Source of the DNA: Cyanothece sp. SIO2G6
GTDB lineage: Bacteria > Cyanobacteriota > Cyanobacteriia > CAKZMO01
Length of the DNA: 13,521 nt
NCBI GenBank assembly: GCA_010672345.1
Contig: JAAHGY010000096.1
Coordinates: 1 to 13,521 of the forward strand
Direction: 5' to 3'
Shown: positions 1,196 through 13,521 of the stretch, piece by piece
Numbering within the stretch: position 1 is the stretch's first letter
Layout of the letters: every line of letters starts with the position of its first letter
Made by a program: the position numbers and the translations under genes
The notes under the pieces: generated by a model
What the model was told of the DNA's origin: nothing
What the model saw: the letters and a program-made list of their open reading frames with translations, nothing else
The model's database searches: none

Positions 1196-2656
1196 ATGAC
1201 TTTATCTATCTACAACACCCTGACTCGCCATAAAGAACCGTTTGCGACCATTGAACCGGATAAAGTCACAATGTATTGCTGCGGGGTGACGGTGTATGAC
1301 GACTGCCACTTGGGTCATGCCCGGTCGTACATTGCCTGGGATGTGCTGCGGCGGTATCTGCAATGGCGGGGATACACGGTGCGTTACGTGCAGAACTTTA
1401 CGGATATTGACGACAAGATTCTCAATCGTGCTAGAGCAGAAGGCGCGACGATGCAAGCGGTAAGCGATCGCTACATTGATGCTTATTTTCGAGATATTCA
1501 ACGACTGAACATTCTGGATGCCAGTGAGTATCCCCGTGTGACAGAGCATATCCCTGATATTCACGCTCTAATCCAGGGACTCGTAGAAAAAGGCTATGCC
1601 TACGCGACCGATGGCGATGTCTACTACAACGTGGAGCAGTTTGGGGATTATGGCAAGCTCTCTGGACGACAGCTTGAGCAAATGCAGGCGGGTGCAGGGG
1701 GACGAGTTGATCCGAATGATCCAGATCGGAAGAAGCGAAACTCCTCTGATTTTGCCCTATGGAAATCGGCCAAGCCGGATGAACCTGCTTGGGAATCTCC
1801 TTGGGGCATGGGCCGACCAGGATGGCACATTGAATGCTCCGCGATGATCTGGGCACGATTGGGCGAAACCATTGATATTCATGGGGGTGGAGGTGACCTG
1901 GTGTTTCCTCACCATGAAAACGAAATTGCTCAATCAGAAGCGTTGACCGGGCAACCCCTCGCTCGCTACTGGATGCACAACGGTATGGTGACAGTGGGGG
2001 GAGAGAAGATGTCCAAATCCCTGGGCAATTTCACCACGATTCAAGCCTTGTTGGATGGGCAGTGGCCTGATTATCCCCAGCCCGTTGCGCCGATGGCGAT
2101 TCGTCTCTTTGTGTTGCAAGCGCACTACCGCAAACCGCTGGATTTTACTCCGATGGCGATCGCCGCCGCTGAGAAGGGTTGGCATACCTTAAATTCTGCG
2201 TTAACCGCAGAATTGCCCTCCCATGAGCTATCTGGGAATACCCTGGAGGCTGAATCGGTTCAACGATTTCAAGCGGCGATGGATGATGACCTCAATACTG
2301 CCGCTGCGTTGGCGGTGCTGTTTGAATTGGCGAAGTCAATTCAGCGCGAAGTGAACCGCCGCACCCACCAATCGACTCGGCAACTATCGGACCCCCAACT
2401 GATCACCACCTGGCAAACGTTAAGCCAACTTGCCAGCGTCCTGGGATTAGAAGCTCAGCCAGAATCCACAGCTTCCTCCCCAGATTCGTCCCTGGATCTG
2501 GATGTTGCTTGGGTAGAAACGTTGTTGCACCAGCGCCAAGCCGCACGGCAGGAAAAGCACTATGCCGAGAGCGATCGCATTCGTGATGAATTGCAAGCAG
2601 CAGGCATCACCGTAGTGGACCTTCCCGGTGGCAAAGCAGAATGGCACCGTTCATAG
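1196..2656 (+). CDS. cysS: Cysteine--tRNA ligase (class I aminoacyl-tRNA synthetase)
   Basis: 486 aa. The N-terminus is MTLSIYNTLTRHKEPF. It carries the class I HIGH motif (HLGHARSY), the KMSKS motif, and the Zn ligand context (YCCG, WHIEC, HGGGGDLVFPHHENE). Length and order are typical of bacterial CysRS. Confidence 0.97.
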   Translation: MTLSIYNTLTRHKEPFATIEPDKVTMYCCGVTVYDDCHLGHARSYIAWDVLRRYLQWRGYTVRYVQNFTDIDDKILNRARAEGATMQAVSDRYIDAYFRDIQRLNILDASEYPRVTEHIPDIHALIQGLVEKGYAYATDGDVYYNVEQFGDYGKLSGRQLEQMQAGAGGRVDPNDPDRKKRNSSDFALWKSAKPDEPAWESPWGMGRPGWHIECSAMIWARLGETIDIHGGGGDLVFPHHENEIAQSEALTGQPLARYWMHNGMVTVGGEKMSKSLGNFTTIQALLDGQWPDYPQPVAPMAIRLFVLQAHYRKPLDFTPMAIAAAEKGWHTLNSALTAELPSHELSGNTLEAESVQRFQAAMDDDLNTAAALAVLFELAKSIQREVNRRTHQSTRQLSDPQLITTWQTLSQLASVLGLEAQPESTASSPDSSLDLDVAWVETLLHQRQAARQEKHYAESDRIRDELQAAGITVVDLPGGKAEWHRS

Positions 2657-2669
2657 CAGGGAGAGGATA

Positions 2670-3743
2670 ATGCAGGTTAAGCCGTTGCTGGCCGAACAAC
2701 TCCGGCTCACACTCTCGGAATATGTCACCGCGATCGCCTGGTCGCCGACGGGTAACTGCCTGGTTGCCGCCACTGGCAGGGGTGAAATCCAATATATTCA
2801 GGATTTCACCCCTGAACAACTCCAGGCTCCGACCGAACAATCCATTGATGCGATCGCATTTTCAGCCGATGGTCGTTGGCTGGCAGCAGGAGGACAAGCA
2901 GGCTGCATTACCCTATGGAAGCTGCCGTTACAACCGCTGATCGGTCCTGCCCACACCTTAGATTGTGGCTCGACCTGGATTGAGCAGATCAGTTGGCATC
3001 CCATCCACCGCTACCTGACATTTCCCCAGGGCAAAACTCTACGAATTTGGGATGCAGAACAAGCAGAAATCGGGCGGGAGATCGAACTGACAGAGCGCCC
3101 CCAGACTATGCAGTGGTCTCCAGCCGGGGATGTGTTGGCGATCGCGTTCAAAACCAACGTCCAAATCTGGCAGCCACTCCAGAGCGCTGAGCCACTTTTT
3201 CAGTGGGAACTCACCGCGACCCCTTTTACCCTCAATTGGTCTATCGATGGTAATTATCTTGCCTGTTCTATTTATGATAGAAGTGTCGGTATTTTGCACT
3301 GGTCTAAGTTGCGCCATGCCAACCTAGAGGCTCCCGATCCCCAAGATTTGCCCGTTCAGATCCGGGGGTTTCCCGGAAAAGCTCGTGCCCTTGCTTGGGC
3401 CGATATTCCCGATAGTGATACATCCCCGATGCTGGCCGTTGCAACCCGCGAAGTGGTGGCAATGTGGTTGTTCGTTCCAGAAGAGGGATGGCAAAACTGG
3501 GTCCTGGATTTGCACAGTGAACTAGTTTTAGACATCGCATTTCAACCTAAAACCGGAAGGCTCGCGTCTTTATCGGACGATGGCTGGCTCATTCTTTGGC
3601 AACTGGCGATCGAAGCGGAGCAGATCTTAGAAGAGGCCGCAGAGGGGTTTTCTTGCCTAGCATGGCATCCATCAGGACAATGGCTAGCGGCAGGTGGGCA
3701 ACAGGGAGAACTCCTGATTTGGTCACTCGCTCCAACAACATGA
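2670..3743 (+). CDS. WD40-repeat (beta-propeller) protein
   Basis: About eight repeats of the type AIAFSADGRWLAAGGQAGCITLWKL, MQWSPAGDVLAIAFKTNVQIWQ and LAWHPSGQWLAAGGQQGELLIWSL. I prefer the ATG at 2670, which is preceded by GGAGAGGA (2660..2667). The track's GTG at 2628 would overlap cysS by 29 nt. Confidence 0.85.
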   Translation: MQVKPLLAEQLRLTLSEYVTAIAWSPTGNCLVAATGRGEIQYIQDFTPEQLQAPTEQSIDAIAFSADGRWLAAGGQAGCITLWKLPLQPLIGPAHTLDCGSTWIEQISWHPIHRYLTFPQGKTLRIWDAEQAEIGREIELTERPQTMQWSPAGDVLAIAFKTNVQIWQPLQSAEPLFQWELTATPFTLNWSIDGNYLACSIYDRSVGILHWSKLRHANLEAPDPQDLPVQIRGFPGKARALAWADIPDSDTSPMLAVATREVVAMWLFVPEEGWQNWVLDLHSELVLDIAFQPKTGRLASLSDDGWLILWQLAIEAEQILEEAAEGFSCLAWHPSGQWLAAGGQQGELLIWSLAPTT

Positions 3744-3752
3744 GGTTCCGGT

Positions 3753-3782
3753 GCCATGAATATAGTTGCCATGAACATAGTT
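3753..3782. repeat. Tandem 15-bp direct repeat (gccatgaaTatagtt / gccatgaaCatagtt)
   Basis: Read directly from the sequence: copy 1 is 3753..3767 and copy 2 is 3768..3782, 14/15 identical. It starts 10 nt after the WD40 stop codon. It overlaps a possible -35 (TGAACA, 3772..3777), with TATAAA at 3794..3799 as a possible -10 for the 62-aa ORF. Confidence 0.85.
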
Positions 3783-3855
3783 AAAAATCATGATATAAAC
3801 CTGCTATTGAGTCCTTTGTAAAACGAGTCTAAACATCCAATAGGAGATTCAGAAA

Positions 3856-4044
3856 ATGACAACCATCCAGCATTATGCAACAAACTATATCGAAAATGCC
3901 AAGGTGACTTTGATTACTCCATTACAAGTAATAGAGGCAAAATCAGTGGAGTACTGCATTTCCAGCGGGTATGTCAAAGTGGTCACTCAAGATGACCGGA
4001 CGTTGATTACCCACATTAGTAATGTGGTGATTGAAGTAACCTGA
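3856..4044 (+). CDS. Small hypothetical protein (62 aa)
   Basis: ATG start preceded by a good Shine-Dalgarno AGGAG (3842..3846, 9-nt spacer). The stop is followed immediately by a 7-bp stem-loop. The sequence (MTTIQHYATNYIENAKVTLITPLQVIEAKSVEY...) looks beta-rich and belongs to no family I recognise. Confidence 0.5.
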   Translation: MTTIQHYATNYIENAKVTLITPLQVIEAKSVEYCISSGYVKVVTQDDRTLITHISNVVIEVT

Positions 4045-4247
4045 TGTGGCAAGGGCAATGTCCTTGCCTTGATGATGGTGGTGTAGCTGTCTGGTCGTTC
4101 CATGCCAGTTTCACCCCTGGAAAGTCGCGATCGCTTTTATTGGAGGGCAGAAGGGCGGAAGTGCTGAATGGGCTGCAAGCTGGGATTGCTGGCCCATTCC
4201 ATCAAGCCTTTGTGCAGGAGTTGGTGGAGCGATCGCTCCTTGAATGA
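4044..4247 (+). CDS. Doubtful 67-aa ORF, hypothetical or a remnant of native sequence
   Basis: The ATG overlaps the previous stop (TGATG), which could indicate coupling. However, the stem-loop at 4048..4068 lies inside its first codons, there is no Shine-Dalgarno, and the protein has no recognisable features. It contains two HIP1 copies (4127..4134, 4229..4236), so the DNA is native-like. Confidence 0.2.
   Translation: MWQGQCPCLDDGGVAVWSFHASFTPGKSRSLLLEGRRAEVLNGLQAGIAGPFHQAFVQELVERSLLE
4048..4068 (+). terminator. Stem-loop just after the 62-aa ORF (GGCAAGG-n7-CCTTGCC); possible terminator without a real U-tract
   Basis: Perfect 7-bp inverted repeat at 4048..4054 and 4062..4068 with a 7-nt loop. 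It starts 4 nt after the TGA stop at 4042..4044. Only TT follows, so intrinsic-terminator status is uncertain. Confidence 0.25.
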
Positions 4248-4737
4248 AGCCTGTTAGTTGAGCCGCAAACCCTGAGTGTGCGATCGCCCATCAGCAAAAC
4301 TATACCTCTCTTGAATGCCCTTGGTCATACGCCCCATCTGGAAATTTGGGGGCACGTCCTCTTTCAGATTTAAATATCCCAATTTCAAGCGAATCGCCTA
4401 CTCCAAATGACTCATAGCCCCAAGGTTCATCTCCCTTGAATGTGATATTTTTCGTGGATCTTATCTTAAGAGTTGTAAATCTATGCCCTATCTACTGAGC
4501 AAGATGTGTTACCCCAATGGCCTTGAACTGAGTGGTGCGGCAAACGTTTTCGGCAAAATGGTCAACTTTTTATCTCGTAGCATTCACTCTAGTGAATTGT
4601 TAGGTTTCCAAATGTTTGTGGGCATTAGTTTGCGTGGACGCATCTGCCCACTATACGGTTTGTACTCAAAAGCTTGTACTACTAGTCCAACTTGCAAGAT
4701 TATTTGAGTGCACTTCTGAACAAGAGGAAGTTGTCCA

Positions 4738-5904
4738 TCAGGCATCACCCTTGAATCGCGCTTCTGGCAGATCCTTAAAGGCATCACCAACACCTACCCA
4801 TATCTGGTTTGAAAATAGGGTTGGTTGCTCTCCATGCGTTGGATCGGGTATGGGTATGGGAGGGTAATTGCCCCTCACGCCCAAGAAGAATACGCGGCGT
4901 CTCTTCTGCGGTGCCCCGTAGTCAGCCGCGTTCAGGAGGTTCACATTAACTGTGTAGCCTATATCCTCTATAGAGTCCTGTATTTCCTGGTAGAGCTTGC
5001 CCCCACCAACTCCCCGTAGGTTACTTACATTTTCTAAAATGAAGAACCGTGGCTGCATTTTTTCAATGATCCTCAAGTATTCTCCAATAAGTTGTCCACG
5101 CGGATCGTTGATGTGTTTCTGGCGACCACATTGACTAAAGGCTTGACAAGGTGGCCCCCCATAAAGAATATCAGGCAGAGTATCGTGATTGCTATACTTT
5201 TGCCAGAAGCCAATTGGGTCGTCCAACTGCTGAATGTCGGATAGAACAACAGAACAACGACTTCCATACCAGCCTGATAGGGTAGAAACAGCATCTTCCC
5301 AAATATCCGAAGCCAAAAGGGTGCGGATTTTATACCCTTTGTACTCAGCTTGATCGGCCCCGATATCTAGACCACCCGCTCCAGAAAAAAGAGACATGGC
5401 AGTTAAGTCTTTGTTTGCGAGTCCCTGCTTATAAGCATATGCCAGAACTGCCTGGAAAATAGCCTTACCAAGCGGCACAGGAACAGCATTGCCAACCTGC
5501 AACTGCGTGCTTGTCAAGGTACCGTAGAATATTAAGTCGTCGGGGAAGCCCTGCAAGCGTGCAGCTTCTCGAACCGTAATGTACCTGTTCTCTGTCGGAT
5601 GGACAAACTTGTTGAAGATATAGGCCGTAACAGTTAGAGAGGGCTTCCGAGGATCTAGACGAATGATCCTCATATTCGGTCCTCCTTTACGATTAGGATC
5701 TTCCTTAAGATAGTAGCGGAACGACTCGTGCCATAGCTCCTCAGGAAGATCTTGCATCTTCTGCCCAATCTTGAGTGCGTCGATCCTTGCCTGGACTTCC
5801 GGGCCAACTTTCCTTGCTATGTGGTTCTCAGCAGCTTGGAAATGCTGTCGGCGGCTCTTTATTTGTTTTTCAGGTGAAGTTGAAGAGATTTGCAACCCAC
5901 TCAT
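4738..5904 (-). CDS. DNA (cytosine-5)-methyltransferase with circularly permuted motif order (IX, X, then I, IV, VI, VIII)
   Basis: 388 aa. Order of motifs in the translation: RYITVREAARLQGFPD (motif IX, aa 107-122) and QVGNAVPVPL (X, aa 136-145), then SLFSGAGGLDIG (I, aa 171-182). These are followed by GGPPCQAFS (IV, catalytic Cys, aa 249-257), FILENV (VI, aa 288-293) and QKRRRVFFLG (VIII, aa 333-342). The ATG at 5904 overlaps the upstream ORF by 35 nt. Confidence 0.93.
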   Translation of the reverse strand: MSGLQISSTSPEKQIKSRRQHFQAAENHIARKVGPEVQARIDALKIGQKMQDLPEELWHESFRYYLKEDPNRKGGPNMRIIRLDPRKPSLTVTAYIFNKFVHPTENRYITVREAARLQGFPDDLIFYGTLTSTQLQVGNAVPVPLGKAIFQAVLAYAYKQGLANKDLTAMSLFSGAGGLDIGADQAEYKGYKIRTLLASDIWEDAVSTLSGWYGSRCSVVLSDIQQLDDPIGFWQKYSNHDTLPDILYGGPPCQAFSQCGRQKHINDPRGQLIGEYLRIIEKMQPRFFILENVSNLRGVGGGKLYQEIQDSIEDIGYTVNVNLLNAADYGAPQKRRRVFFLGVRGNYPPIPIPDPTHGEQPTLFSNQIWVGVGDAFKDLPEARFKGDA

Positions 5905-7105
5905 CCCTCGCTATTGATTTTGTAAACGATATAATGCCATCGAATAGATTGTACAGGGGCTTGTCCGGATCTAGGTCTCGTCCAAGATGAACCCCAGTGT
6001 CCTTCTCTGAAGTCCAAATAATATCTCGCACTGCCTCCAGATATTCATCGAAATGACGCACGGCATGAATATTCGACAACAACCCAGTCTTAACGTGGAA
6101 ATGGGTAACATCGGGCTTCAATTCAGCACTAAGTTTCAGAACTTGGTAGGTTCCTTTCTTAATGTCATCTGTCCGATCCATACCGACGCTAGTCTTGCTA
6201 TCGCTCACGCTCTCATATCCAGATGCACCACGTCCACGGCTGGGCCAATTATCAGGTAATGGAAATGGCTGACCGCAGGCGTTAGTAAACCAATAGATGT
6301 TGTCACTGCGATTTTTTTCTGAGTATGCGTCTAGGGCACGAATCCAGTAGGACGAGAAGGTCTTGAAGAAGTCCTTGTTTGACGTAACGAGATTAAGCAT
6401 GGCTGCTTGGCTCCATCCATCACTGCCTGGGGTTCCGTAGACATAGGTCTTGTGTGACCAGCCATCTCCATCGGCTTGAGGAATGAAGAGACTGATGGGT
6501 GTGTGTCGTAAAGCAGTATGATCAGTTTCCGTGTGCTCCATGCCTATAATCTCACCATCTTCAGCTAGTTCCGTCAGCTCATCACTTTCAAACACGAGTG
6601 GAAGAGTAGCCAAAGGTGCAGCCTTTATTTCGGCAAACAAGACGGTTTTGGTGCCAGCCTCATAAGTTACGAGGTCTATCGGTTCTTTCCCCTTGAAAAC
6701 TTGAACATTCCGGCCATGCCGTACGAACAGGCGTTCATAGAACAAAGCAAGCCATCGACTGGATGCACGACCAATCACTCCGCTCTGAGGCTTATTGGCT
6801 TTGTGGAAAACAAAGATGTCATTCAGGATACACCGAGGGCATATATTAACGTAGGGATAGAGCATCATCGGGGGATGCGTCGGGCAATATAGCCATCCTC
6901 TATTTGCTACTAACCCATAGTATTCAGACATGATGCACATATCAAAGGCCATCGCTAGAGCGGTACCCACGCCAATGTCGGTTTCTTCAGCGTGGGTGTA
7001 GGCTGCTTCAATAAGTGTGTCGCAGAGCATTACATCATTGGGGCTAGCAACAATACTTGTCGCTGTGTCGAGTATGGCTTGTACTCGCTCATCGAACTCG
7101 TTCAA
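5870..7105 (-). CDS. Uncharacterised 411-aa protein; candidate PD-(D/E)xK restriction endonuclease partner of the m5C methyltransferase
   Basis: Long ORF co-directional with and overlapping the methyltransferase gene. It has the motif EPIDLV-x12-FAEIKAAP (P142, D144, E159, K161; nt 6623..6682) and the cluster CPTH-x11-CPRC (C74, H77, C89, C92; nt 6830..6886). The start is a TTG at 7105 with AGGTGAG 8 nt upstream. The next in-frame ATG is at codon 26 (7030). I recognise no family. Confidence 0.8.
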   Translation of the reverse strand: MNEFDERVQAILDTATSIVASPNDVMLCDTLIEAAYTHAEETDIGVGTALAMAFDMCIMSEYYGLVANRGWLYCPTHPPMMLYPYVNICPRCILNDIFVFHKANKPQSGVIGRASSRWLALFYERLFVRHGRNVQVFKGKEPIDLVTYEAGTKTVLFAEIKAAPLATLPLVFESDELTELAEDGEIIGMEHTETDHTALRHTPISLFIPQADGDGWSHKTYVYGTPGSDGWSQAAMLNLVTSNKDFFKTFSSYWIRALDAYSEKNRSDNIYWFTNACGQPFPLPDNWPSRGRGASGYESVSDSKTSVGMDRTDDIKKGTYQVLKLSAELKPDVTHFHVKTGLLSNIHAVRHFDEYLEAVRDIIWTSEKDTGVHLGRDLDPDKPLYNLFDGIISFTKSIARDEWVANLFNFT

Positions 7106-7142
7106 AACATCATCTCACCTAAAGGTTATGTCCATTACCATT

Positions 7143-7202
7143 CAGCAGATCTCAGTAACTCAACACCAGATTCACTGGATAATGCCATTATGCAGCAGAT
7201 CT
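7143..7202. promoter_or_regulatory. Two copies of CAGCAGATCT, 50 bp apart, upstream of the 411-aa ORF; possible operator/promoter elements
   Basis: Exact 10-mers at 7143..7152 and 7193..7202, each containing the palindrome AGATCT and each preceded by CCATTA. They lie 38 to 97 bp upstream of the TTG start on the minus strand. Confidence 0.3.
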
Positions 7203-7342
7203 AGCGGATAACACCCAGTTTTCAAAATTCATAAAACAACTTTAACGGTTTAACTCTGGCATCAGTTCGCAAAGGTAGACGACTGCTAAAATTGCTGAAC
7301 CCAATACGGTCAGCTTGTTCCGGTGCAAATTCTCACAGGTGC

Positions 7343-7501
7343 TTATCTAGCCAGGGTATTGTTTCTCTGTCTGGTGATAGTGCTGGAATACTGAGTTGCC
7401 AATCGAGCAATGTCAGTTGCGCTGTCGAGAGCGAGTAAATCGCCAAACATGAGGGTTGTCTTTTCGGGAGGGGCGATCGCCACAAGCCGACCTCTGACCA
7501 T
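7343..7501 (-). pseudogene. 52-codon ORF, possibly the displaced 3' tail of the upstream ABC ATPase gene
   Basis: My own translation gives MVRGRLVAIAPPEKTTLMFGDLLALDSATDIARLATQYSSTITRQRNNTLAR. It is too short for the ORF track. It contains an in-frame HIP1 read as A-I-A, typical of native cyanobacterial coding sequence. It is preceded by tgc tga aat gcg, which repeats the end of the ATPase gene at 8341..8346. Confidence 0.25.
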
Positions 7502-7542
7502 CGCATTTCAGCATCCAGACCCAAATTGTAAGAGTTAAGACT

Positions 7543-7857
7543 TCATCTGACACTAGCAATGACTTGTCCAATCTCCTCAGTTGAGGCTCCTGTCGCTAAA
7601 ATTGCTCGGATTAGCAACTCGATGGATACAGAAGCATCACCATTTTCAGCATTCGCAACACGCGGTTGACTAGACTGTATTTTTTCAGCTAAGTCCGATT
7701 GTGTCATTAGTGACTGTCTTCGCTCTTTGAGACTGCGGCTCAGTGCCAGCTTTATTTCGACAAGAATTGCCTCTTCTGGACTTAGCTCTAGAAAATCTGA
7801 AACCGTACCGACTTTCCAGCCTTTATCTTCCAGTTTTTTGCTAGTTTTTTGATCCAT
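7543..7857 (-). CDS. XRE-family helix-turn-helix antitoxin (HigA-like)
   Basis: 104 aa. The HTH core is RRQSLMTQSDLAEKIQSSQPRVANAENG. It lies 4 nt downstream of a RelE/HigB-like toxin gene in toxin-first order. Confidence 0.8.
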   Translation of the reverse strand: MDQKTSKKLEDKGWKVGTVSDFLELSPEEAILVEIKLALSRSLKERRQSLMTQSDLAEKIQSSQPRVANAENGDASVSIELLIRAILATGASTEEIGQVIASVR

Positions 7858-7861
7858 CCTG

Positions 7862-8203
7862 TTAACCTTGCTTATCTTGCTCGTACTTGCTTAATCGCTT
7901 CTTACAAATATCAATAATGCTCTGGGGTGTTGTCTGAGTCTTTTTGCTAAAGACTTGCAAAATCAAGATGGCATCGTTGTCAATGCGATATACGATTCGC
8001 CAATTTTGCTCTGCATCCCTGATTCGCAGTTCATGACAGCCTACTCCTATACTTGGCATGGGCCTTGACTGAGGCAGACCTAAACATTCACCCTGTTGCA
8101 GTCGCCTTAATAGAAACCCTGCCTCAAGTCTGGACACTTGACTAAAAGGAGGGGTTTTAACCTCACCATGAAGCCAAACTAGAGGTTTATCATTTTTACT
8201 CAT
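7862..8203 (-). CDS. RelE/ParE-superfamily toxin, HigB / phage Gp49-like
   Basis: From the internal Met: MSKNDKPLVWLHGEVKTPPFS...GVGCHELRIRDAEQNWRIVYRIDNDAILILQVFSKKTQTTP, the typical Gp49/HigB-like pattern. I use the ATG at 8203 (113 aa) rather than the track's start at 8326. The extra 41 codons cover the probable promoter and have no toxin-family similarity. Confidence 0.75.
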   Translation of the reverse strand: MSKNDKPLVWLHGEVKTPPFSQVSRLEAGFLLRRLQQGECLGLPQSRPMPSIGVGCHELRIRDAEQNWRIVYRIDNDAILILQVFSKKTQTTPQSIIDICKKRLSKYEQDKQG

Positions 8204-8206
8204 GTC

Positions 8207-8224
8207 TATATCATATCTGATATA
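8207..8224. promoter_or_regulatory. Inverted repeat TATATCA-n4-TGATATA immediately upstream of the toxin start; candidate toxin-antitoxin operator
   Basis: The 7-bp arms are at 8207..8213 and 8218..8224, read directly. The repeat overlaps a TATGAT -10-like hexamer on the minus strand. A TTGACG (plus strand 8284..8289) followed 17 nt later by TCGAAT is another promoter candidate. Confidence 0.3.
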
Positions 8225-8340
8225 TCCTGCTATGCTAGCACCATACAGTAATATCAATGGATTCGATTTTGCTCTAAGCAATTCGTCAACAGGATCAGAT
8301 TGGCACCACCCTTCCGTCCCAAGCATTCAGTCCGATCGCC

Positions 8341-8937
8341 TCAGCAGGGGATCACCTGCCCTTGACACAATTGCCCCAGCAATGATTTGTCGTGGCTGAT
8401 CACCATTAGCCCCATGTTATGGTCACGGGCAAAGTCCAGCACCACCTGCCAGATCAGGGCTTGGGTATTGGCATCTAACATAGCGGTCATTTCATCGGCA
8501 ATCAGATAACGGGTGTTGGGGTTGAGGATACGAGCGATCGCCACTCGCTGTAATTCCCCACCGCTTAATTCATGGGGATAACGGGTCATCCAGCCGGGAT
8601 GAATGCCGAGGGCTTTGAGGTAGTGGGGGCGGGGGACGTATCCTTCTCGCAAAATTTGGTCAATGCGCCAGCGGGGGTTAACCGACAATTCGGGATTTTG
8701 AAAGACGAGCTGAACCGGGCAGTAACCTTGGCTGGGGAGCAACTGGTCATCTAGCGTGATCTGTCCTTGGGTGGGAGTGAGATAGCCTGCTAGCAGTTTA
8801 CCCAGAGTGGTTTTGCCGTGGCCCGATGGAGCCATGAGGCCGATCACTTCTCCCGGTGCAATGGAGAGGGTGCGATCGCGCACTACCCAGGGCAATTTTG
8901 CCCCATAACGAAACCAGAGTCCTTCACCGTTCAGCAT
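8341..8937 (-). CDS. ABC transporter ATP-binding protein (DppF/NikE-like), unusually short at 198 aa
   Basis: Walker A is APSGHGKTT, Q-loop VFQNP, signature LSGGELQRVAIAR, Walker B YLIADEMTAMLD and H-loop ISHD. Only 16 residues follow the H-loop His. The gene overlaps the upstream ATPase gene by 14 nt. Confidence 0.9.
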   Translation of the reverse strand: MLNGEGLWFRYGAKLPWVVRDRTLSIAPGEVIGLMAPSGHGKTTLGKLLAGYLTPTQGQITLDDQLLPSQGYCPVQLVFQNPELSVNPRWRIDQILREGYVPRPHYLKALGIHPGWMTRYPHELSGGELQRVAIARILNPNTRYLIADEMTAMLDANTQALIWQVVLDFARDHNMGLMVISHDKSLLGQLCQGQVIPC

Positions 8938-9853
8938 GGATACACCTCACCCAACCTTGACGAATAAACTGGGATGGGGGACGGGCTTCCCGACATGCCT
9001 CTGTCACCCAGGAACAGCGATCGCCATACAGACATCCCCTGGGCAAGTTCTCCGGACTGGGCTGGTTTCCCGGTACGGGCACAAAGTCGTTTTGGGGGAG
9101 TGATCGCCAGAGCGCCTGGGTGTAGGGATGGCGGAGATTTCCCCCAGCAAAATCCTGGACATCAGCAATTTCAACCGTCGTTCCGGCGTAGAACACTGCC
9201 ACCCGATCGGCGACCTGGAGCGCGGCTTCGATGTCGTGGGTAATCAGAATCACGCCCCGTCCTTCCTGGGCCAGTTCCCGCAGGTGGTTTAGGGTTTCAG
9301 TCACCACATCAGGATGTAGCCCTGGGGTGGGTTCATCCGCAATCAATAGGTGGGCTTGGGTCATCACGGCAGTGGAAACCAACACCCGTCGTGCCATCCC
9401 CCCCGACAGTTGAAATGGGTAGTGGCGCGATGCCGTTGGTGGTAAGTCGTAGCGGGTAAAGGTGCGATCCCGGAGCCTCCGGGCAGCAGGTGCAGAGAGG
9501 CCATTAAGCTGTCCCACTCGCTGGACTTGCCGCCCCACGGTCATCAGTGGGTCGAGGTAGCCGATGGATTGGGGAATGAGGGCGATGTCCTTGCCTCGCA
9601 GTGCCTTGCATCGTTTGGGGGTCAGCCGTTCCCCATGAAACTCCATCGTGCCCGATACCTGGGCATTGTCGGGCAAAATTCCCAGAATGGCATGGGCCAG
9701 CAGGCTCTTGCCGGAGCCACTCGCTCCCACCACGGCCACTACTTCCCCCGGCTGGACCGTTAAATCCAGATCGGTGATCACAGTGAGTTGTTTACGCCGC
9801 AGCCCTTGATCGTATTGAGTAAAGGTGACGCTGAGGTTGGAGATGGTGAGCAT
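8924..9853 (-). CDS. ABC transporter ATP-binding protein (DppD/OppD/NikD-like) with a Cys-rich C-terminal extension
   Basis: 309 aa. Walker A is GASGSGKS, signature LSGGMARRVLVSTA, Walker B LLIADEPTPGLH and H-loop ITHD. The C-terminal region (HPYTQALW...GCLYGDRCSWVTEACRE) is typical of the oligopeptide/dipeptide ATPase C-terminal domain. Confidence 0.92.
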   Translation of the reverse strand: MLTISNLSVTFTQYDQGLRRKQLTVITDLDLTVQPGEVVAVVGASGSGKSLLAHAILGILPDNAQVSGTMEFHGERLTPKRCKALRGKDIALIPQSIGYLDPLMTVGRQVQRVGQLNGLSAPAARRLRDRTFTRYDLPPTASRHYPFQLSGGMARRVLVSTAVMTQAHLLIADEPTPGLHPDVVTETLNHLRELAQEGRGVILITHDIEAALQVADRVAVFYAGTTVEIADVQDFAGGNLRHPYTQALWRSLPQNDFVPVPGNQPSPENLPRGCLYGDRCSWVTEACREARPPSQFIRQGWVRCIHAER

Positions 9854-9860
9854 TTTGGAA

Positions 9861-9898
9861 AAGGCAGAAGGCAGAAGGCAGAAGGCAGAAGGCAGAAG
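9861..9898. repeat. Heptanucleotide tandem repeat (AAGGCAG x5.4; TTCTGCC on the coding strand), STRR-like
   Basis: Five exact copies at 9861..9895 plus a partial copy. The repeat ends 8 nt from the ATPase start codon (9851..9853, minus strand). Confidence 0.9.
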
Positions 9899-9948
9899 TA
9901 GGGGCAGCGCCCCCGTGCTTGCCCCTTGCCCTGTTTAAGGAATGGAGG

Positions 9949-9992
9949 TGGGGGCGTTTTGGGTTTTGAGTGGGGGCGTTTTAGGTTTTGAG
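9949..9992. repeat. Tandem 22-bp direct repeat (tgggggcgttttGggttttgag / tgggggcgttttAggttttgag)
   Basis: Copy 1 is 9949..9970 and copy 2 is 9971..9992, 21/22 identical. It lies in the 184-bp gap between the permease and ATPase genes. Confidence 0.9.
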
Positions 9993-10037
9993 TTTATTTC
10001 TTCATTCTTCCGTCCTCGTTCCTCGTTTTTTGTACTG

Positions 10038-10898
10038 TTATCCCTGGCTGGTTTTGGGGTCGAGGAGGGCGCGGACGTTTTCGCCGAGCCAGTCAAAGGC
10101 TTTGACGGAGAGCAGCAGCAGGACTCCTGGCATCACGCCGAGCCACCAGTATCCGGTGGAGAGGTGGCGCATGGATTCGGCTAGGATGATGCCGATGGCG
10201 GGAATGTGGGGTGAGAGGCCAATGCCAATGAAGGACAAGGCGGCTTCGTGCAAGATGGCGTGGGGAAAGAGCAGAATCAGTCCGACTAAGAGTTGGGGGA
10301 TGATGTGGGGCACCATGTGATGGGAGGCAATCCAGAGAGGCGATCGCCCAAAGCGATGGGACAGCTTTACATAGTCGGAGCTGTTGACCTGTAAGGTTTC
10401 GGCCCGGATCACCCGTGCTAGGCTGGTCCAGTGGGTAAAGGCCACGGCGATGATGACCCCGGTGGTGCCGCCTCCGACGGCAAAGGCGATCAAAATGAGC
10501 AGGACGAGGTGGGGCAAGCTAAAAAAGACATCGATAATCCAGGTGATGACGGCATCAACCCAACCTCCCAAGGTGCCAGCTGCTAATCCCAGGCCAGTGC
10601 CAATCAGAGCGCTCATGGTGGCGGCCAGCAGACCAATGCGTAAACTGAGGGACATGCCGTGGAGAGAACGGCTGAGCATATCTCTCCCGATCCAGTCGGT
10701 GCCGAAGGCATGGGCCAAGGAGGGCGGCTGATTGCGCTGGGGCAGTACCGGACTCAGTCCTGCATCACCCATGACCCAAGGGCTGAGAATGATCACCAGC
10801 AAAAACAGCACACAAAGGGTAATGCCCCAGAAAGTCCGCTGCCGTCGATTACTGTGGAGTCGTTGGATAGGGAGAGCCACAAATACAGGGGTGGTCAT
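10038..10898 (-). CDS. ABC transporter permease (DppC/OppC/NikC-like)
   Basis: 286 aa with multiple hydrophobic spans. The C-terminal end ...FDWLGENVRALLDPKTSQG is typical of the family. There is a 4-nt ATGA overlap with the upstream permease gene. Confidence 0.9.
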   Translation of the reverse strand: MTTPVFVALPIQRLHSNRRQRTFWGITLCVLFLLVIILSPWVMGDAGLSPVLPQRNQPPSLAHAFGTDWIGRDMLSRSLHGMSLSLRIGLLAATMSALIGTGLGLAAGTLGGWVDAVITWIIDVFFSLPHLVLLILIAFAVGGGTTGVIIAVAFTHWTSLARVIRAETLQVNSSDYVKLSHRFGRSPLWIASHHMVPHIIPQLLVGLILLFPHAILHEAALSFIGIGLSPHIPAIGIILAESMRHLSTGYWWLGVMPGVLLLLSVKAFDWLGENVRALLDPKTSQG

Positions 10899-11881
10899 GA
10901 TTGACTGCCTCCAATGCGAATGCGGGGGTCAACAATGGGATAGGCCAGATCCGCCAAGGTGTTGCCGCTGTAAACAAAGAGGGCACTGAAAAACACAATC
11001 CCCACCAGCAGCGGAATATCACTTCTTAGCGCTGCCTGCACCGTGGCCTCGCCCAAACCGGGATAGGCAAACACCTGCTCCACCAATACAGAACCGCCAA
11101 ACAACTCGCTTAGGGAGGCAAATTGCAGGGTGAGGGCGGGCAAAATCAAGTTGCGAAAACCGTGATACCGGATCACCCCCCAGAGGCTTTCGCCTTGGGC
11201 ATGAGCAAACAGGATATAGTCGCTGTGCAGTACGTCAATCAGCTTTTGGCGGGTGTGCAGGGTGATGTTGGCGATGCCGATGATGCTGAGGGTGATGGAG
11301 GGCAGCAGCAGGTGGTGGAGATGCTGCCAGATCGTGACATCTGCTGCCAGCACGCCGGGAGGGGCAGCACAGCAAATAGGCGTGACCTTTAGCGACACGG
11401 AAAAGGTAATCAACAGCAACAGGGCCACCCAAAAGGTGGGAGATGAGGCCAGGGTGTAAGCATAGAGCCGAATGATCCGGTCGGTCCATGACCCTGCTAA
11501 TGCACCCGCCAGAATGCCGAGTCCCAGTCCGAGAATGCCGGAAAGTAACCAGGCGATCGCCAGCATTTGTAGCGAGACCCAAAACCGAGTGGCAATCACC
11601 TCCCCCACGGGTTGGTTGTACACCATTGATGTGCCCAAATTACCCTGGAGCAGTTGCCCCAGCCAATCCCCAAATCGCAGGATCAGCGGCTGATCCAGAC
11701 CCCAGCGTTCAGCAATCAGTTGCCGCTGTTCTGGGCTAATCTGCAACATGTCCGCCCCAATGTAAGCCCGCACGGGGTCAATGGGAGAAAAACTCAGCAG
11801 CACAAAGGTGAAGATCGCCACCGCCAGCAGTAACAGTCCCAGCCGCAGCAGTTTTTGAATAGTAAAAGTGAGGATGGACAT
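10895..11881 (-). CDS. ABC transporter permease (DppB/OppB/NikB-like)
   Basis: 328 aa. The N-terminus is MSILTFTIQKLLRLGLLLLAV... and the C-terminus is ...GNTLADLAYPIVDPRIRIGG, a DppB-type signature. There is a 1-nt TAATG overlap with the substrate-binding protein gene. Confidence 0.9.
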   Translation of the reverse strand: MSILTFTIQKLLRLGLLLLAVAIFTFVLLSFSPIDPVRAYIGADMLQISPEQRQLIAERWGLDQPLILRFGDWLGQLLQGNLGTSMVYNQPVGEVIATRFWVSLQMLAIAWLLSGILGLGLGILAGALAGSWTDRIIRLYAYTLASSPTFWVALLLLITFSVSLKVTPICCAAPPGVLAADVTIWQHLHHLLLPSITLSIIGIANITLHTRQKLIDVLHSDYILFAHAQGESLWGVIRYHGFRNLILPALTLQFASLSELFGGSVLVEQVFAYPGLGEATVQAALRSDIPLLVGIVFFSALFVYSGNTLADLAYPIVDPRIRIGGSQS

Positions 11882-13521
11882 TAGTTACAGGTCCACTCCC
11901 ATGCCGCAATGTTGGCGGTAATCGGCCAGCCATGCCCGTGAGGTTCCACTTGGGGCTGACCAATCTCCAGACAGTCGCTGACAAAGTAGGTGTGATCCAG
12001 GTTTACCAACCAGGCCCAGGCCGCATCCCCTTTGGCAGTAAAGCCCGTTTCCCCATCCCATTGGGCTGCTTGCCAAAAGGCGATCGCCTCTGCCTCAGAA
12101 GGGGCACCCATTGCCAAATCCAGGGTGTTATCAATGGCTTGATTGGCGTAATAGCCTGCGTTGTAGAAATCTCCCTGGGCCGCTTGGCTGTGGTAGAGGT
12201 TGTACATCTCCGTTTGGTCATGACTACCCCAGCCGAATAGAACGACATTGCTGTGCATGGCGGGTTCAATTTCATCCCAGCTCTTGCCCTCCACATTGGC
12301 CTGAATACCAATGGGTTGCAGCATTTCCGCCACCGATAAGGCCAGGGCTTGGCGAGTGCTATCGTTGGCGGGATAGAGGAGGGTAAATTCAGCCATGAGA
12401 CCGTCTTTTTCTAACACACCATCGCCATCGCTATCGGTCCACCCTCCCGCTGAAAGAATCTCCTGGGCTGCTTCGGGTTGGGCATCCTCAATCGCTGCCC
12501 TGGGTTCCTCCCAGGCCAGTCCACTAACGGGACCGTAGGCCACCGATCCATAGCCTTCCAGCACCCCTTCAACCAGAGCTTGACGATCAATGGCATAGTT
12601 CACGGCTTGGCGAATGGCCGGATCTGCCGTCACATCATCGCCAATGGGGTCGCCATCAGGGGTCGTTGCCCCTGCTGAAGCTGGAACATAGGGAAACATC
12701 AATCCTCGGTTATCGACGCTATCCACGTCGTAGAGGGTCATCCCCTCAACGGTTTGTACTGCGAGGGATTGAGGTACACTTGCTACCTGAGCTTCGCCAG
12801 CTTTGGCTGCTGCAAAGGCGGCATCTTCCTCCACAAACAGGAACACGAGGCGTTCAATCCCAGGCGCATCGCCATAGTAATTGGGATTGGCTTCTACAAT
12901 GAGTTGCTGCCCTTCATCCCACTGCACCAGTTGATAGGGACCAGAGCCGATGGGATTACGGGCATAGGCGGGACCGTGGACATGTTCTGGCACAATCCCC
13001 AACGTAATCAGGCGATTGACAAAGGTGCTTTGGGGTTGATTCAAGCGGAGTTCGACGGTGGTGTTATCGATGGCGATCGCCTCCTCCAGCACCGTCACAT
13101 CGGTCAGCCCTCCACTTTCTCCGGCCTGGTTGAAGGTGTAGGCCACATCCGCAGCGGTCAGGGGTTCGCCATCGGAAAAGACCGCATCCTCCCGAATCGT
13201 CACCGTCCAAGTTAGACCGTCGTCACTGACGCTGTAGTCCGTTGCCAAATCACTGACGATATTGAGGTCTGCGTCTCGCCTCAGCAGCGTGCTTTGGAAC
13301 AGGGGTGAACCATAGCGTCCCCAACCCAACGTCGGGTCGTACCCCTCTTCACTCTCGCCCCCGATCGCCAGTACGATTTGCTCCGCTGAACCCGACCGAG
13401 GCGAGGCAGTAGATTCTGATACATCGGTAGACTCTGTTGGACCGGAATCACAACTGACTAACATCATCCCGCACAGAACAATGCCTAAGCTCCCCAGAAA
13501 TGACTGGTTTTTACGACTCAT
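11881..13521 (-). CDS. ABC transporter substrate-binding lipoprotein, family 5 (peptide/nickel; DppA/OppA/NikA-like)
   Basis: 546 aa. The signal peptide has a lipobox (MSRKNQSFLGSLGIVLCGMMLVS-C24). The body is typical of SBP family 5 (...LVQWDEGQQLIVEANPNYYG...). The ATG is the last three bases of the window, so an upstream extension cannot be excluded. The signal-peptide geometry supports this Met. Confidence 0.9.
   Translation of the reverse strand: MSRKNQSFLGSLGIVLCGMMLVSCDSGPTESTDVSESTASPRSGSAEQIVLAIGGESEEGYDPTLGWGRYGSPLFQSTLLRRDADLNIVSDLATDYSVSDDGLTWTVTIREDAVFSDGEPLTAADVAYTFNQAGESGGLTDVTVLEEAIAIDNTTVELRLNQPQSTFVNRLITLGIVPEHVHGPAYARNPIGSGPYQLVQWDEGQQLIVEANPNYYGDAPGIERLVFLFVEEDAAFAAAKAGEAQVASVPQSLAVQTVEGMTLYDVDSVDNRGLMFPYVPASAGATTPDGDPIGDDVTADPAIRQAVNYAIDRQALVEGVLEGYGSVAYGPVSGLAWEEPRAAIEDAQPEAAQEILSAGGWTDSDGDGVLEKDGLMAEFTLLYPANDSTRQALALSVAEMLQPIGIQANVEGKSWDEIEPAMHSNVVLFGWGSHDQTEMYNLYHSQAAQGDFYNAGYYANQAIDNTLDLAMGAPSEAEAIAFWQAAQWDGETGFTAKGDAAWAWLVNLDHTYFVSDCLEIGQPQVEPHGHGWPITANIAAWEWTCN

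Follow-up and report, generated by a model that had tools for sequence, protein, structure and literature searches.

A predicted BssHII-family type IIP restriction-modification system on a small low-GC island of Cyanothece sp. SIO2G6

Two overlapping genes in a 13,521-nt stretch of DNA (the window) from the Cyanothece sp. SIO2G6 MAG raised the question of whether they encode a new kind of defence or a restriction-modification (R-M) system that is already known. The original prediction, made from the sequence alone, described the pair as a candidate novel system of compact, type II-like build. The ORF listing confirmed the two reading frames on which it was based. Both were intact and arranged head to tail on the minus strand, encoding proteins of 411 aa (R, 5870..7105, TTG start) and 388 aa (M, 4738..5904, ATG start) and overlapping by 35 nt (5870..5904). 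By homology, the upstream gene encodes a restriction endonuclease of the BssHII family (type IIP) and the downstream gene its cognate m5C methyltransferase, in agreement with the type II-like part of the prediction. Our preferred reading, with a probability of about 90%, is that the locus encodes a functional BssHII-family type IIP R-M system on a small, horizontally acquired island. Novelty was not borne out: with identities of 46% (R) and 62% (M) to the BssHII pair and a matching gene order and overlap, the two genes are, as judged from these similarities, an unremarkable cyanobacterial representative of the BssHII system, which has been known for a long time, and not a new defence system.

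Sequence comparison of the 411-aa protein with the prototype R.BssHII (AAC45756.1/O30876) revealed 46% identity (194/420, E 8e-138) between residues 1-410 and 1-417, respectively. R.BssHII is a biochemically characterised type II endonuclease in commercial use. The PADLOC REase_II model PDLC03440 was matched by residues 9-410 over positions 11-417 of 417 (E 1.3e-122, 408 bits), whereas the sibling model PDLC03413 scored 82 bits and covered only the C-terminal domain (residues 299-409). Pfam and NCBIfam scans of the protein gave no match, and searches of PDB sequences, started from the protein alone and from a profile of 35 sequences, returned nothing meaningful. The earlier statement that the protein fits no family was therefore correct for Pfam, NCBIfam and PDB sequences and incorrect for the PADLOC/REBASE-derived models and the prototype R.BssHII. 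Homology to a non-nuclease family, which had been named as a test of the prediction, was not found for the 411-aa protein. When each member of the R family was scanned against Pfam (E up to 1), scattered weak matches to HSDR_N_2, YaeQ and DUF234 appeared (E ≥0.006, not significant), which suggests a PD-(D/E)XK nuclease. The sequence is the same as that of NEQ96500.1 from the Cyanothece sp. SIO2G6 MAG, an entry annotated as a “hypothetical protein”, for which the name BssHII-family type II restriction endonuclease can now be used. Its family has hundreds of members in Cyanobacteria, Chloroflexota, Bacteroidota, Bacillota and archaea. Most of the named members found in the searches were labelled hypothetical because neither Pfam nor NCBIfam has a model for the family, an annotation gap, and one Nostocales entry was named “alpha-amylase family protein”. 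The BssHII R-M system itself was cloned in 1997 from Geobacillus (Bacillus) stearothermophilus H3 (Xu et al. 1997, Nucleic Acids Res 25:3991, as cited in PMC5944983), a thermophilic member of the Bacillota, unlike the cyanobacterial host of the window pair.

The downstream protein matched PF00145 (E 1.8e-65, 222 bits against a cut-off of 22) and TIGR00675 (E 3.6e-58, 197.8 bits against a cut-off of 100.65), each in two stretches. Its motifs were found in the order IX (residue 112), X (138), I (173), IV PCQ (252), VI ENV (291) and VIII QxRxR (333), which is a circularly permuted arrangement; this order and the PF00145 match bear out the predicted permuted cytosine-5 methyltransferase. Motifs IX (REAARLQGF) and X (GNAV) were encoded at 5482..5571 on the minus strand, before motif I, and motifs I (FSGAG), IV (PPCQ, with the catalytic Cys253), VI (ENV) and VIII (QKRRR) at 4894..5388 on the same strand. 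M.BssHII is a classic permuted m5C methyltransferase of the same permutation type (PMC5944983), with motifs IX-X placed before I-VIII. This “type H” permutation, in which the new N-terminus lies between motif VIII and the target-recognition domain, is also shared with the naturally permuted m5C methyltransferases M.Alw26I, M2.Eco31I, M.Esp3I and M2.BsaI (PMC5944983); these are, however, type IIS enzymes with asymmetric sites and different endonucleases, and the window M is closest to M.BssHII. It was 62% identical (E 2e-175), with homology over the full length, to the methyltransferase of Brevibacillus borstelensis L001 (L001:7223-8350), which is 100% identical to the prototype M.BssHII (AAC45757.1/O30877), and its best named database matches were from Brevibacillus. 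The N-terminal target-recognition-like region (residues 27-105, 5590..5826, minus strand) was 84% identical to that of M.BssHII, against 58% for motifs I-VIII. The N-terminal extension of the window M was 13 residues longer than that of M.BssHII and was not conserved.

The arrangement of the two genes also followed the BssHII pattern. In L001, where M is identical to the prototype M.BssHII and R falls in the ≥90% cluster of R.BssHII, the gene order R-then-M on one strand and the overlap matched those of the window, and M starts within the terminal RDEW codons of R. The M ATG of the window lay inside the same conserved R-D-E-W codons (5870..5904, minus strand), although the overlap was 35 nt instead of 32 nt. 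The RDEW-embedded 32-nt overlap was found in 25 related loci, including L001 and Nostocales, and the R-M overlap is a family trait. The possibility that the overlap was an artefact of longest-ORF calling was ruled out. The conserved N-terminal block of the M family (“NHIAR...”) started at M residue 27 and was preceded by just two possible start codons, ATG 5904 and TTG 5895, both of which are within the R gene, so the overlap is genuine. The TTG start of R, another difference from BssHII, placed the N-terminus in line with residue 1 of the prototype R.BssHII, and a Shine-Dalgarno-like AGGTGAG (7114..7120, minus strand), which may serve in its translation, was located 8 nt upstream. R and M are probably co-transcribed. 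Promoter and terminator scans around the cassette gave matches no more numerous than in shuffled sequence, with no convincing promoter, and tRNA and Rfam scans of the same region gave no matches. Because the M start codon falls within R, 35 nt before its end, translation of M is probably coupled to that of R. In the proposed mechanism, both genes would be expressed from the same strand, with R ahead of M; the 388-aa M would methylate a cytosine in the recognition sites of the host, most likely GCGCGC, and the 411-aa R, presumably a Mg2+-requiring homodimer, would cut incoming DNA wherever that site is unmethylated. Activity and site are predicted here from the identities of 46% (R) and 62% (M).

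Conservation of the gene neighbourhood, and of the co-occurrence of R with this type of methyltransferase, had been proposed as a check on the pair. Synteny was analysed in the best 80 of 194 stretches encoding R relatives, which were taken from a species-representative genome collection with one genome per species. A DNA methyltransferase was located directly 3' of the R homologue and on the same strand in 80/80 of these loci; it was a permuted m5C enzyme in 67/80 and a PF01555 amino-methyltransferase in 13/80. No other partner was conserved beside R and the methyltransferase in the 80 loci. The check thus came out in favour of the pairing, and the alternative offered with the original prediction, that the methyltransferase marks self for a different effector, was rejected because all 80 loci paired the endonuclease with a DNA methyltransferase. 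The exchange of the partner in 13 of the best 80 loci shows that the family is evolutionarily plastic, and it is a clear example from nature of one methyltransferase being replaced by another, with an amino-methyltransferase in the place of a permuted m5C enzyme.

Conserved residues of R, putative catalytic ones among them, were identified from two alignments, A1 with 35 R homologues and A2 spanning both sibling REase families. A1 contained 60 invariant columns, all present in the window R by construction, including E141, D144, E159 and K161, and A2 contained 19, all carried by the window R; D55, C89, K105, D144, K161, K304, R311, D313 and K317 were among the invariant residues retained. The nuclease-like catalytic signature predicted for the 411-aa protein was present as a putative PD-(D/E)XK-like motif, E141-P-I-D144 ... 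E159-I-K161 (6623..6685, minus strand), which was invariant in the 35 homologues; across both sibling families, D144 and K161 were invariant and E159 was at least 90% conserved. A Cys cluster, C74 ... C89-P-x-C92 (6830..6886, minus strand), was invariant in A1; in A2 this held for C89, and C74 and C92 reached at least 90% conservation. The cluster may form a metal-binding knuckle. The most conserved block, G296-YESVSDSKTSVGMDRTDDIKK-317 (6155..6220, minus strand), was located at the start of the C-terminal domain and contained K304, G308, R311, D313 and K317, which were invariant across both families; it may have a role in DNA recognition. Features common to the window R and the sibling family PDLC03413 are D144, E159-x-K161, the Cys cluster and the K304/R311/D313/K317 block.

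In the AF2 model of R (pLDDT 88, with low pLDDT at residues 290-310), D144 was located at the start of the strand 145-149 and the ExK at the end of the strand 154-160, preceded by the helix 108-129. This modelled placement of the invariant D...ExK on consecutive β-strands after a long helix would resemble that in PD-(D/E)XK REases such as HindIII (PDB 3A4K), and the motif would fit a PD-(D/E)XK nuclease. The similarity was not significant by Pfam (E ≥0.006) or by structure. The Foldseek comparison recommended for the AlphaFold model was run against PDB and BFVD and gave no match with E <0.001; HindIII and several PD-(D/E)XK / Cas4 entries appeared at E 0.6-3 only, with HindIII as the second-ranked match at E 3.1. 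The 2008 survey by Orlowski and Bujnicki (PMC2441816) assigned no fold to BssHII, and a search of the available literature for more recent structural studies of BssHII, AscI or MluI found none. It is doubtful, but conceivable, that the BssHII-family endonuclease, including this member, has an architecture absent among solved structures (a very divergent PD-(D/E)XK core, a Cys3 metal knuckle and an undescribed C-terminal CGCG-recognition domain around the invariant SDxK...DRTDDxKK block), a specificity other than GCGCGC, or both. An unrepresented architecture is worth considering because a model of pLDDT 88 had no Foldseek neighbour at E <0.001 and the 2008 survey had left BssHII unassigned, and the family, for which no solved structure was found, could be a useful structural target. 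The proposal of a new endonuclease fold variant or specificity was nevertheless not supported, since R and M are clear homologues of the BssHII pair.

The prototype BssHII cuts at G^CGCGC and AscI at GG^CGCGCC. From the homology of both proteins, the window system most likely recognises GCGCGC or a close variant with a CGCG core. The counts of the site itself added little: GCGCGC was observed 0 times in the window against 2.5 expected, which has no statistical power, and the observed/expected ratio of 0.27 over 579 kb from 69 related loci was not specific because other GC-rich palindromes were equally depleted. The most durable alternative, which we consider rather unlikely, is that R belongs to the same BssHII family and is an endonuclease for another CGCG-core site, such as the 8-bp AscI site GGCGCGCC, instead of GCGCGC. 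Pingoud et al. 2014 (PMC4081073) point to a clear sequence similarity between BssHII (GCGCGC) and AscI (GGCGCGCC), on which the comparison with AscI is based here; R, at just 46% identity to R.BssHII, could therefore have a related but different site. The C-terminal domain shared with the sibling family PDLC03413 and the exchange of the methyltransferase partner described above are in keeping with such a shift. Against it, the score of R with the BssHII-type model, over the full length, was 408 bits and that with the sibling model 82 bits. In M, the recognition-like region was closer to M.BssHII than the catalytic core was (84% against 58%), which argues for an unchanged methylation target. 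GCGCGC stays the preferred site.

The pair is part of a low-GC island (3750..8335, no strand assigned) that was delimited by the GC profile, HIP1 and the flanking genes and lies between a WD40-repeat gene and an oligopeptide ABC-transporter operon. GC content was 41-48% over about 3500-8250, against 52-61% for the adjacent genes on either side (1250-3750 and 8250-13521); at the very start of the window, up to position ~1250, it was again ~43%. HIP1 (GCGATCGC) was present in 19 copies in the window, none of which was in 4288-7472 or 7481-8533 and one of which was in 4288-8533. The GC content and the scarcity of HIP1 confirm the compositionally foreign block noted earlier, and on these grounds the island was most likely acquired horizontally. 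The search for flanking repeats marking an insertion found only HIP1-based matches and short two-copy matches, which are probably due to chance. The low-GC, HIP1-poor state suggests a recent acquisition with little time for decay.

R genes are commonly inactivated after acquisition. A decaying or domesticated system, in which M is active as an orphan or epigenetic methylase and R is inactive despite its intact ORF, is accordingly a further alternative, and the weak TTG start codon of R and the fact that the activity of both proteins is predicted from sequence are compatible with it. We regard it as improbable: R had no frameshift or premature stop, it kept every family-invariant residue, including D144, E159 and K161, and the composition of the island points to a recent arrival. 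Last comes the alternative of a novel defence linked to methylation, with the 411-aa protein as an effector of a new type or with the methylase marking self for a separate one. It draws on the missing Pfam, NCBIfam and PDB sequence matches and on a confident AF2 model with no significant structural neighbour, but it is effectively refuted, as far as sequence comparison goes, by full-length homology to the characterised type II endonuclease R.BssHII, by the PADLOC type II REase match (E 1e-122) and by the invariable pairing with a DNA methyltransferase and no other conserved partner in the best 80 of 194 loci. In annotation, the two genes may be listed as a probable R-M system with GCGCGC specificity, located on an island of recent acquisition.

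In a further difference from BssHII, the window pair adjoined a HigB/HigA-like toxin-antitoxin (TA) pair (7543..8326, minus strand), which is context and not part of the R-M system. A toxin-antitoxin module had been predicted beside the pair, and it was confirmed as a Gp49/HigB-like toxin (7862..8326, minus strand; PF05973, E 3.2e-11) and an HTH_3 antitoxin (7543..7857, minus strand; PF01381, E 1.5e-08). As also predicted, no Vsr, helicase or ATPase gene was found in the island, and no controller (C) protein accompanied the pair. The order R before M with no controller counts against the preferred reading, since a new host would have to escape self-restriction on arrival of the system. The antitoxin gene was the sole HTH gene, located 437 nt upstream of R, and matched the PADLOC “Control_protein” at E 0.02 only; it was rejected as an R-M controller, being paired with the toxin gene and absent from related R-M loci. 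No small HTH controller gene immediately upstream of R and co-oriented with it was found in the window, and the related loci L001 and L003 also had no upstream HTH gene. In the closest R-M relative (86% identity), which had no adjoining TA pair, the genes were found in a different genomic context, beside surE.

The gene pair comprised R, a 411-aa ORF with a TTG start (5870..7105, minus strand), and M, a 388-aa ORF with an ATG start (4738..5904, minus strand). M matched PF00145 (E 1.8e-65) and TIGR00675 (E 3.6e-58), the domain being matched in two stretches, and its motifs ran in the order IX (residue 112), X (138), I (173), IV PCQ (252), VI ENV (291), and VIII QxRxR (333). In agreement with the original prediction, M was therefore unambiguously assigned, from its sequence, as a circularly permuted cytosine-5 DNA methyltransferase. 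The passage of PMC5944983 that cites Xu et al. 1997 and Bujnicki 2000 presents M.BssHII as the earliest described natural enzyme of this permuted m5C kind. In Brevibacillus borstelensis, the gene adjoining an R homologue encoded a 375-aa protein that was 100% identical to the prototype M.BssHII (AAC45757.1/O30877) and 62% identical to M (E 2e-175). The identity was 84% over residues 27-105, the N-terminal region that in enzymes permuted this way corresponds to the target-recognition domain, 73% over motifs IX-X, and 58% over motifs I-VIII.

R had no match in Pfam, NCBIfam, or PDB sequences, which was why it had initially been placed in no family. That statement held for these three collections, but R matched the PADLOC type II restriction enzyme model PDLC03440 over its whole length, residues 9-410 aligning with positions 11-417 of the 417-position model (E 1.3e-122). 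Among 5.8 billion proteins searched, 662 relatives were found, and the named ones among the matches listed were mostly labelled 'hypothetical'. The member listing of one 417-aa cluster of these relatives (P0013) included UniRef O30876 / AAC45756.1, 'BssHII restriction endonuclease [Geobacillus stearothermophilus]', and direct comparison of R with R.BssHII gave 46% identity over the full length (E 8e-138). With both proteins homologous to the BssHII pair, permuted motifs in M, the same gene order and overlap, and intact invariant residues, the pair is best assigned as a member of the known BssHII R-M family and not as a new system; of the candidate novel R-M system proposed earlier, the R-M system stood and the novelty did not. 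Neither Pfam nor NCBIfam has a model for the R.BssHII family. A Nostocales RefSeq entry in another cluster (P0100), 44% identical to R, carried the name 'alpha-amylase family protein', probably in error.

The residues E141-P-x-D144 and E159-x-K161 were invariant in a 35-sequence alignment of the R family, bearing out the nuclease-like signature noticed in the 411-aa protein. When the sibling REase family PDLC03413 was added, D144 and K161 were still invariant and E159 was at least 90% conserved. In the AlphaFold model of R, which was confident (pLDDT 88.3, pTM 0.89), a long helix (residues 108-129) was followed by strand 145-149, with D144 at its beginning, and by strand 154-160, with the ExK at its end. 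As modelled, this placement would fit the canonical PD-(D/E)XK layout, and E141-P-x-D144 ... E159-x-K161 likely forms the active site of R. A cysteine cluster, C74...C89-P-x-C92, was also invariant in the alignment. The most conserved block of R, G296-YESVSDxKTSVGMDRTDDIKK-317, lay where the C-terminal domain begins and fell within the only low-confidence part of the AF2 model; this domain and its SDxK...G..R.DD.KK block were common to family PDLC03413.

The 35-nt overlap of the two minus-strand ORFs (5870..5904) was confirmed. The N-terminal block conserved among methyltransferases of this family ('NHIAR...') began at M residue 27, and the only start codons 5' of it in the window were the ATG at 5904 and a TTG at 5895. 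An artefact of taking the longest ORF was ruled out because both of these start options fall within R. In the closest relative, the gene caller placed the M start at a GTG just past the R stop codon, a GTG that the window lacked. The TTG start of R was preceded by AGGTGAG at 7120..7114, and the resulting N-terminus was collinear with residue 1 of the prototype R.BssHII. Among the related loci, the M start ATG lay within the codons of the conserved R-D-E-W of R in 25, each with a 32-nt overlap, from Bacillota, Cyanobacteria, and Chloroflexota (including L001, L003, L012, L016, and many Nostocales); in other loci the M start was instead only a few nt from the stop codon of R. L001, the B. borstelensis locus, whose M was identical to the prototype and whose R fell in a cluster of R.BssHII at the level of at least 90%, had this RDEW-type overlap. 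In the window the embedding was at 5893-5904, with GAT GAR TGG read as ATG ARt GGn. The window pair thus shared gene order, overlap type, and permuted M with the BssHII system, and its overlap was 35 nt instead of the 32 nt of L001 because R was longer by one C-terminal residue. The overlap is a family trait, and translation of M may be coupled to that of R through it. A promoter scan around the pair gave no more matches than expected by chance.

With one genome per species, the 194 stretches encoding an R relative spanned Cyanobacteria, Chloroflexota, Bacteroidota, Bacillota, Acidobacteriota, Planctomycetota, and archaea. Synteny was read in the best 80, where a permuted m5C methyltransferase lay directly downstream of the R homologue on the same strand in 67. 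The other 13 (L025, L038, L039, L046, L049, L050, L052, L058, L063, L067, L068, L072, and L082) had there instead a protein of 560-600 aa carrying the PF01555 N6/N4 amino-methyltransferase domain (e.g. L038:3256-5028), so a DNA methyltransferase followed the endonuclease homologue in 80 of 80, and the lack of co-occurrence that would have told against the original prediction was not seen. Within a single endonuclease family, the protective methyltransferase has been swapped naturally in these 13 loci. The pair most similar to that of the window (86% identity in R, 88% in M) adjoined surE and no TA module, which is consistent with a mobile cassette. Sequenced plasmids and phages rarely carry a member of the R family, each collection giving one distant relative of about 31% identity: one at 254-1144 of a 12.4-kb Acinetobacter indicus plasmid (NZ_CP044453.1), and one at 1370-3555 of Vibrio phage 1F53_PE004 (L087, PQ189389.1), a tectivirus-like element (Vinavirales, 14.4 kb) from Vibrio cyclitrophicus in which a type II methyltransferase lay directly downstream. 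The mild interest that remains lies in the annotation gap, the unsolved fold, the exchange of methyltransferase partners, and the M start conserved within the RDEW motif of R.

The prototype BssHII site is G^CGCGC (PMC4081073). Since the recognition-like region of M was highly identical to that of M.BssHII, the best guess for the target of the window pair would be the same GCGCGC. A related CGCG-core site for R is conceivable at only 46% identity to R.BssHII, given that BssHII and AscI (GG^CGCGCC) are reported to be clearly similar (PMC4081073), and was considered unlikely. The site-avoidance statistics were compatible with the GCGCGC target and not decisive: in 579 kb of related loci the observed/expected ratio of GCGCGC was 0.27 (rank 2 of 64 palindromic hexamers), with GGCGCC, CTGCAG, and CGCGCG depleted to an equal degree, and the window contained 0 copies against 2.5 expected.

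The GC content was 41-48% at about 3500-8250, against 52-61% in the genes adjacent on either side (1250-3750 and 8250-13521); GC was low as well, at ~43%, in the opening ~1250 bases of the window. The cyanobacterial HIP1 octamer GCGATCGC, a palindrome, had 19 copies in the window where 0.19 would be expected and was absent from 4288-7472, which holds the R-M pair, and from 7481-8533, which holds a TA pair. The HIP1 gaps and the GC dip together mark a foreign, recently acquired island of ~4.6 kb carrying both pairs, as the original prediction of a foreign block beside a toxin-antitoxin module had it. The TA pair consisted of a Gp49/HigB-like toxin gene (7862..8326, minus strand; PF05973, E 3e-11), whose translation probably begins in fact at the internal Met, residue 43, and, downstream of it, a gene for a 104-aa HTH_3 antitoxin (7543..7857, minus strand). 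This HigB/Gp49-HTH_3 pair was not beside the closest R-M relative. Also as predicted, the island contained no Vsr, helicase, or ATPase gene, and no controller protein accompanied the R-M pair, the nearby HTH gene being part of the TA pair. The island lay between two genes, cysS and a WD40-repeat gene, and an oligopeptide-type ABC transporter operon. At its left edge, a 15-nt direct repeat in tandem (TGCCATGAATATAGT / TGCCATGAACATAGT; 3752-3781) immediately followed the WD40-repeat stop codon and might be the remnant of an insertion site. At 3856-4247 on the plus strand, two ORFs of only 62 and 67 aa had no significant family match. In the 440-490 nt on either side of the R-M pair (4250-4737 and 7106-7542), no gene, RNA family, tRNA, or promoter was convincing. 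These ORFs and stretches may be remnants of the island or regulatory regions.
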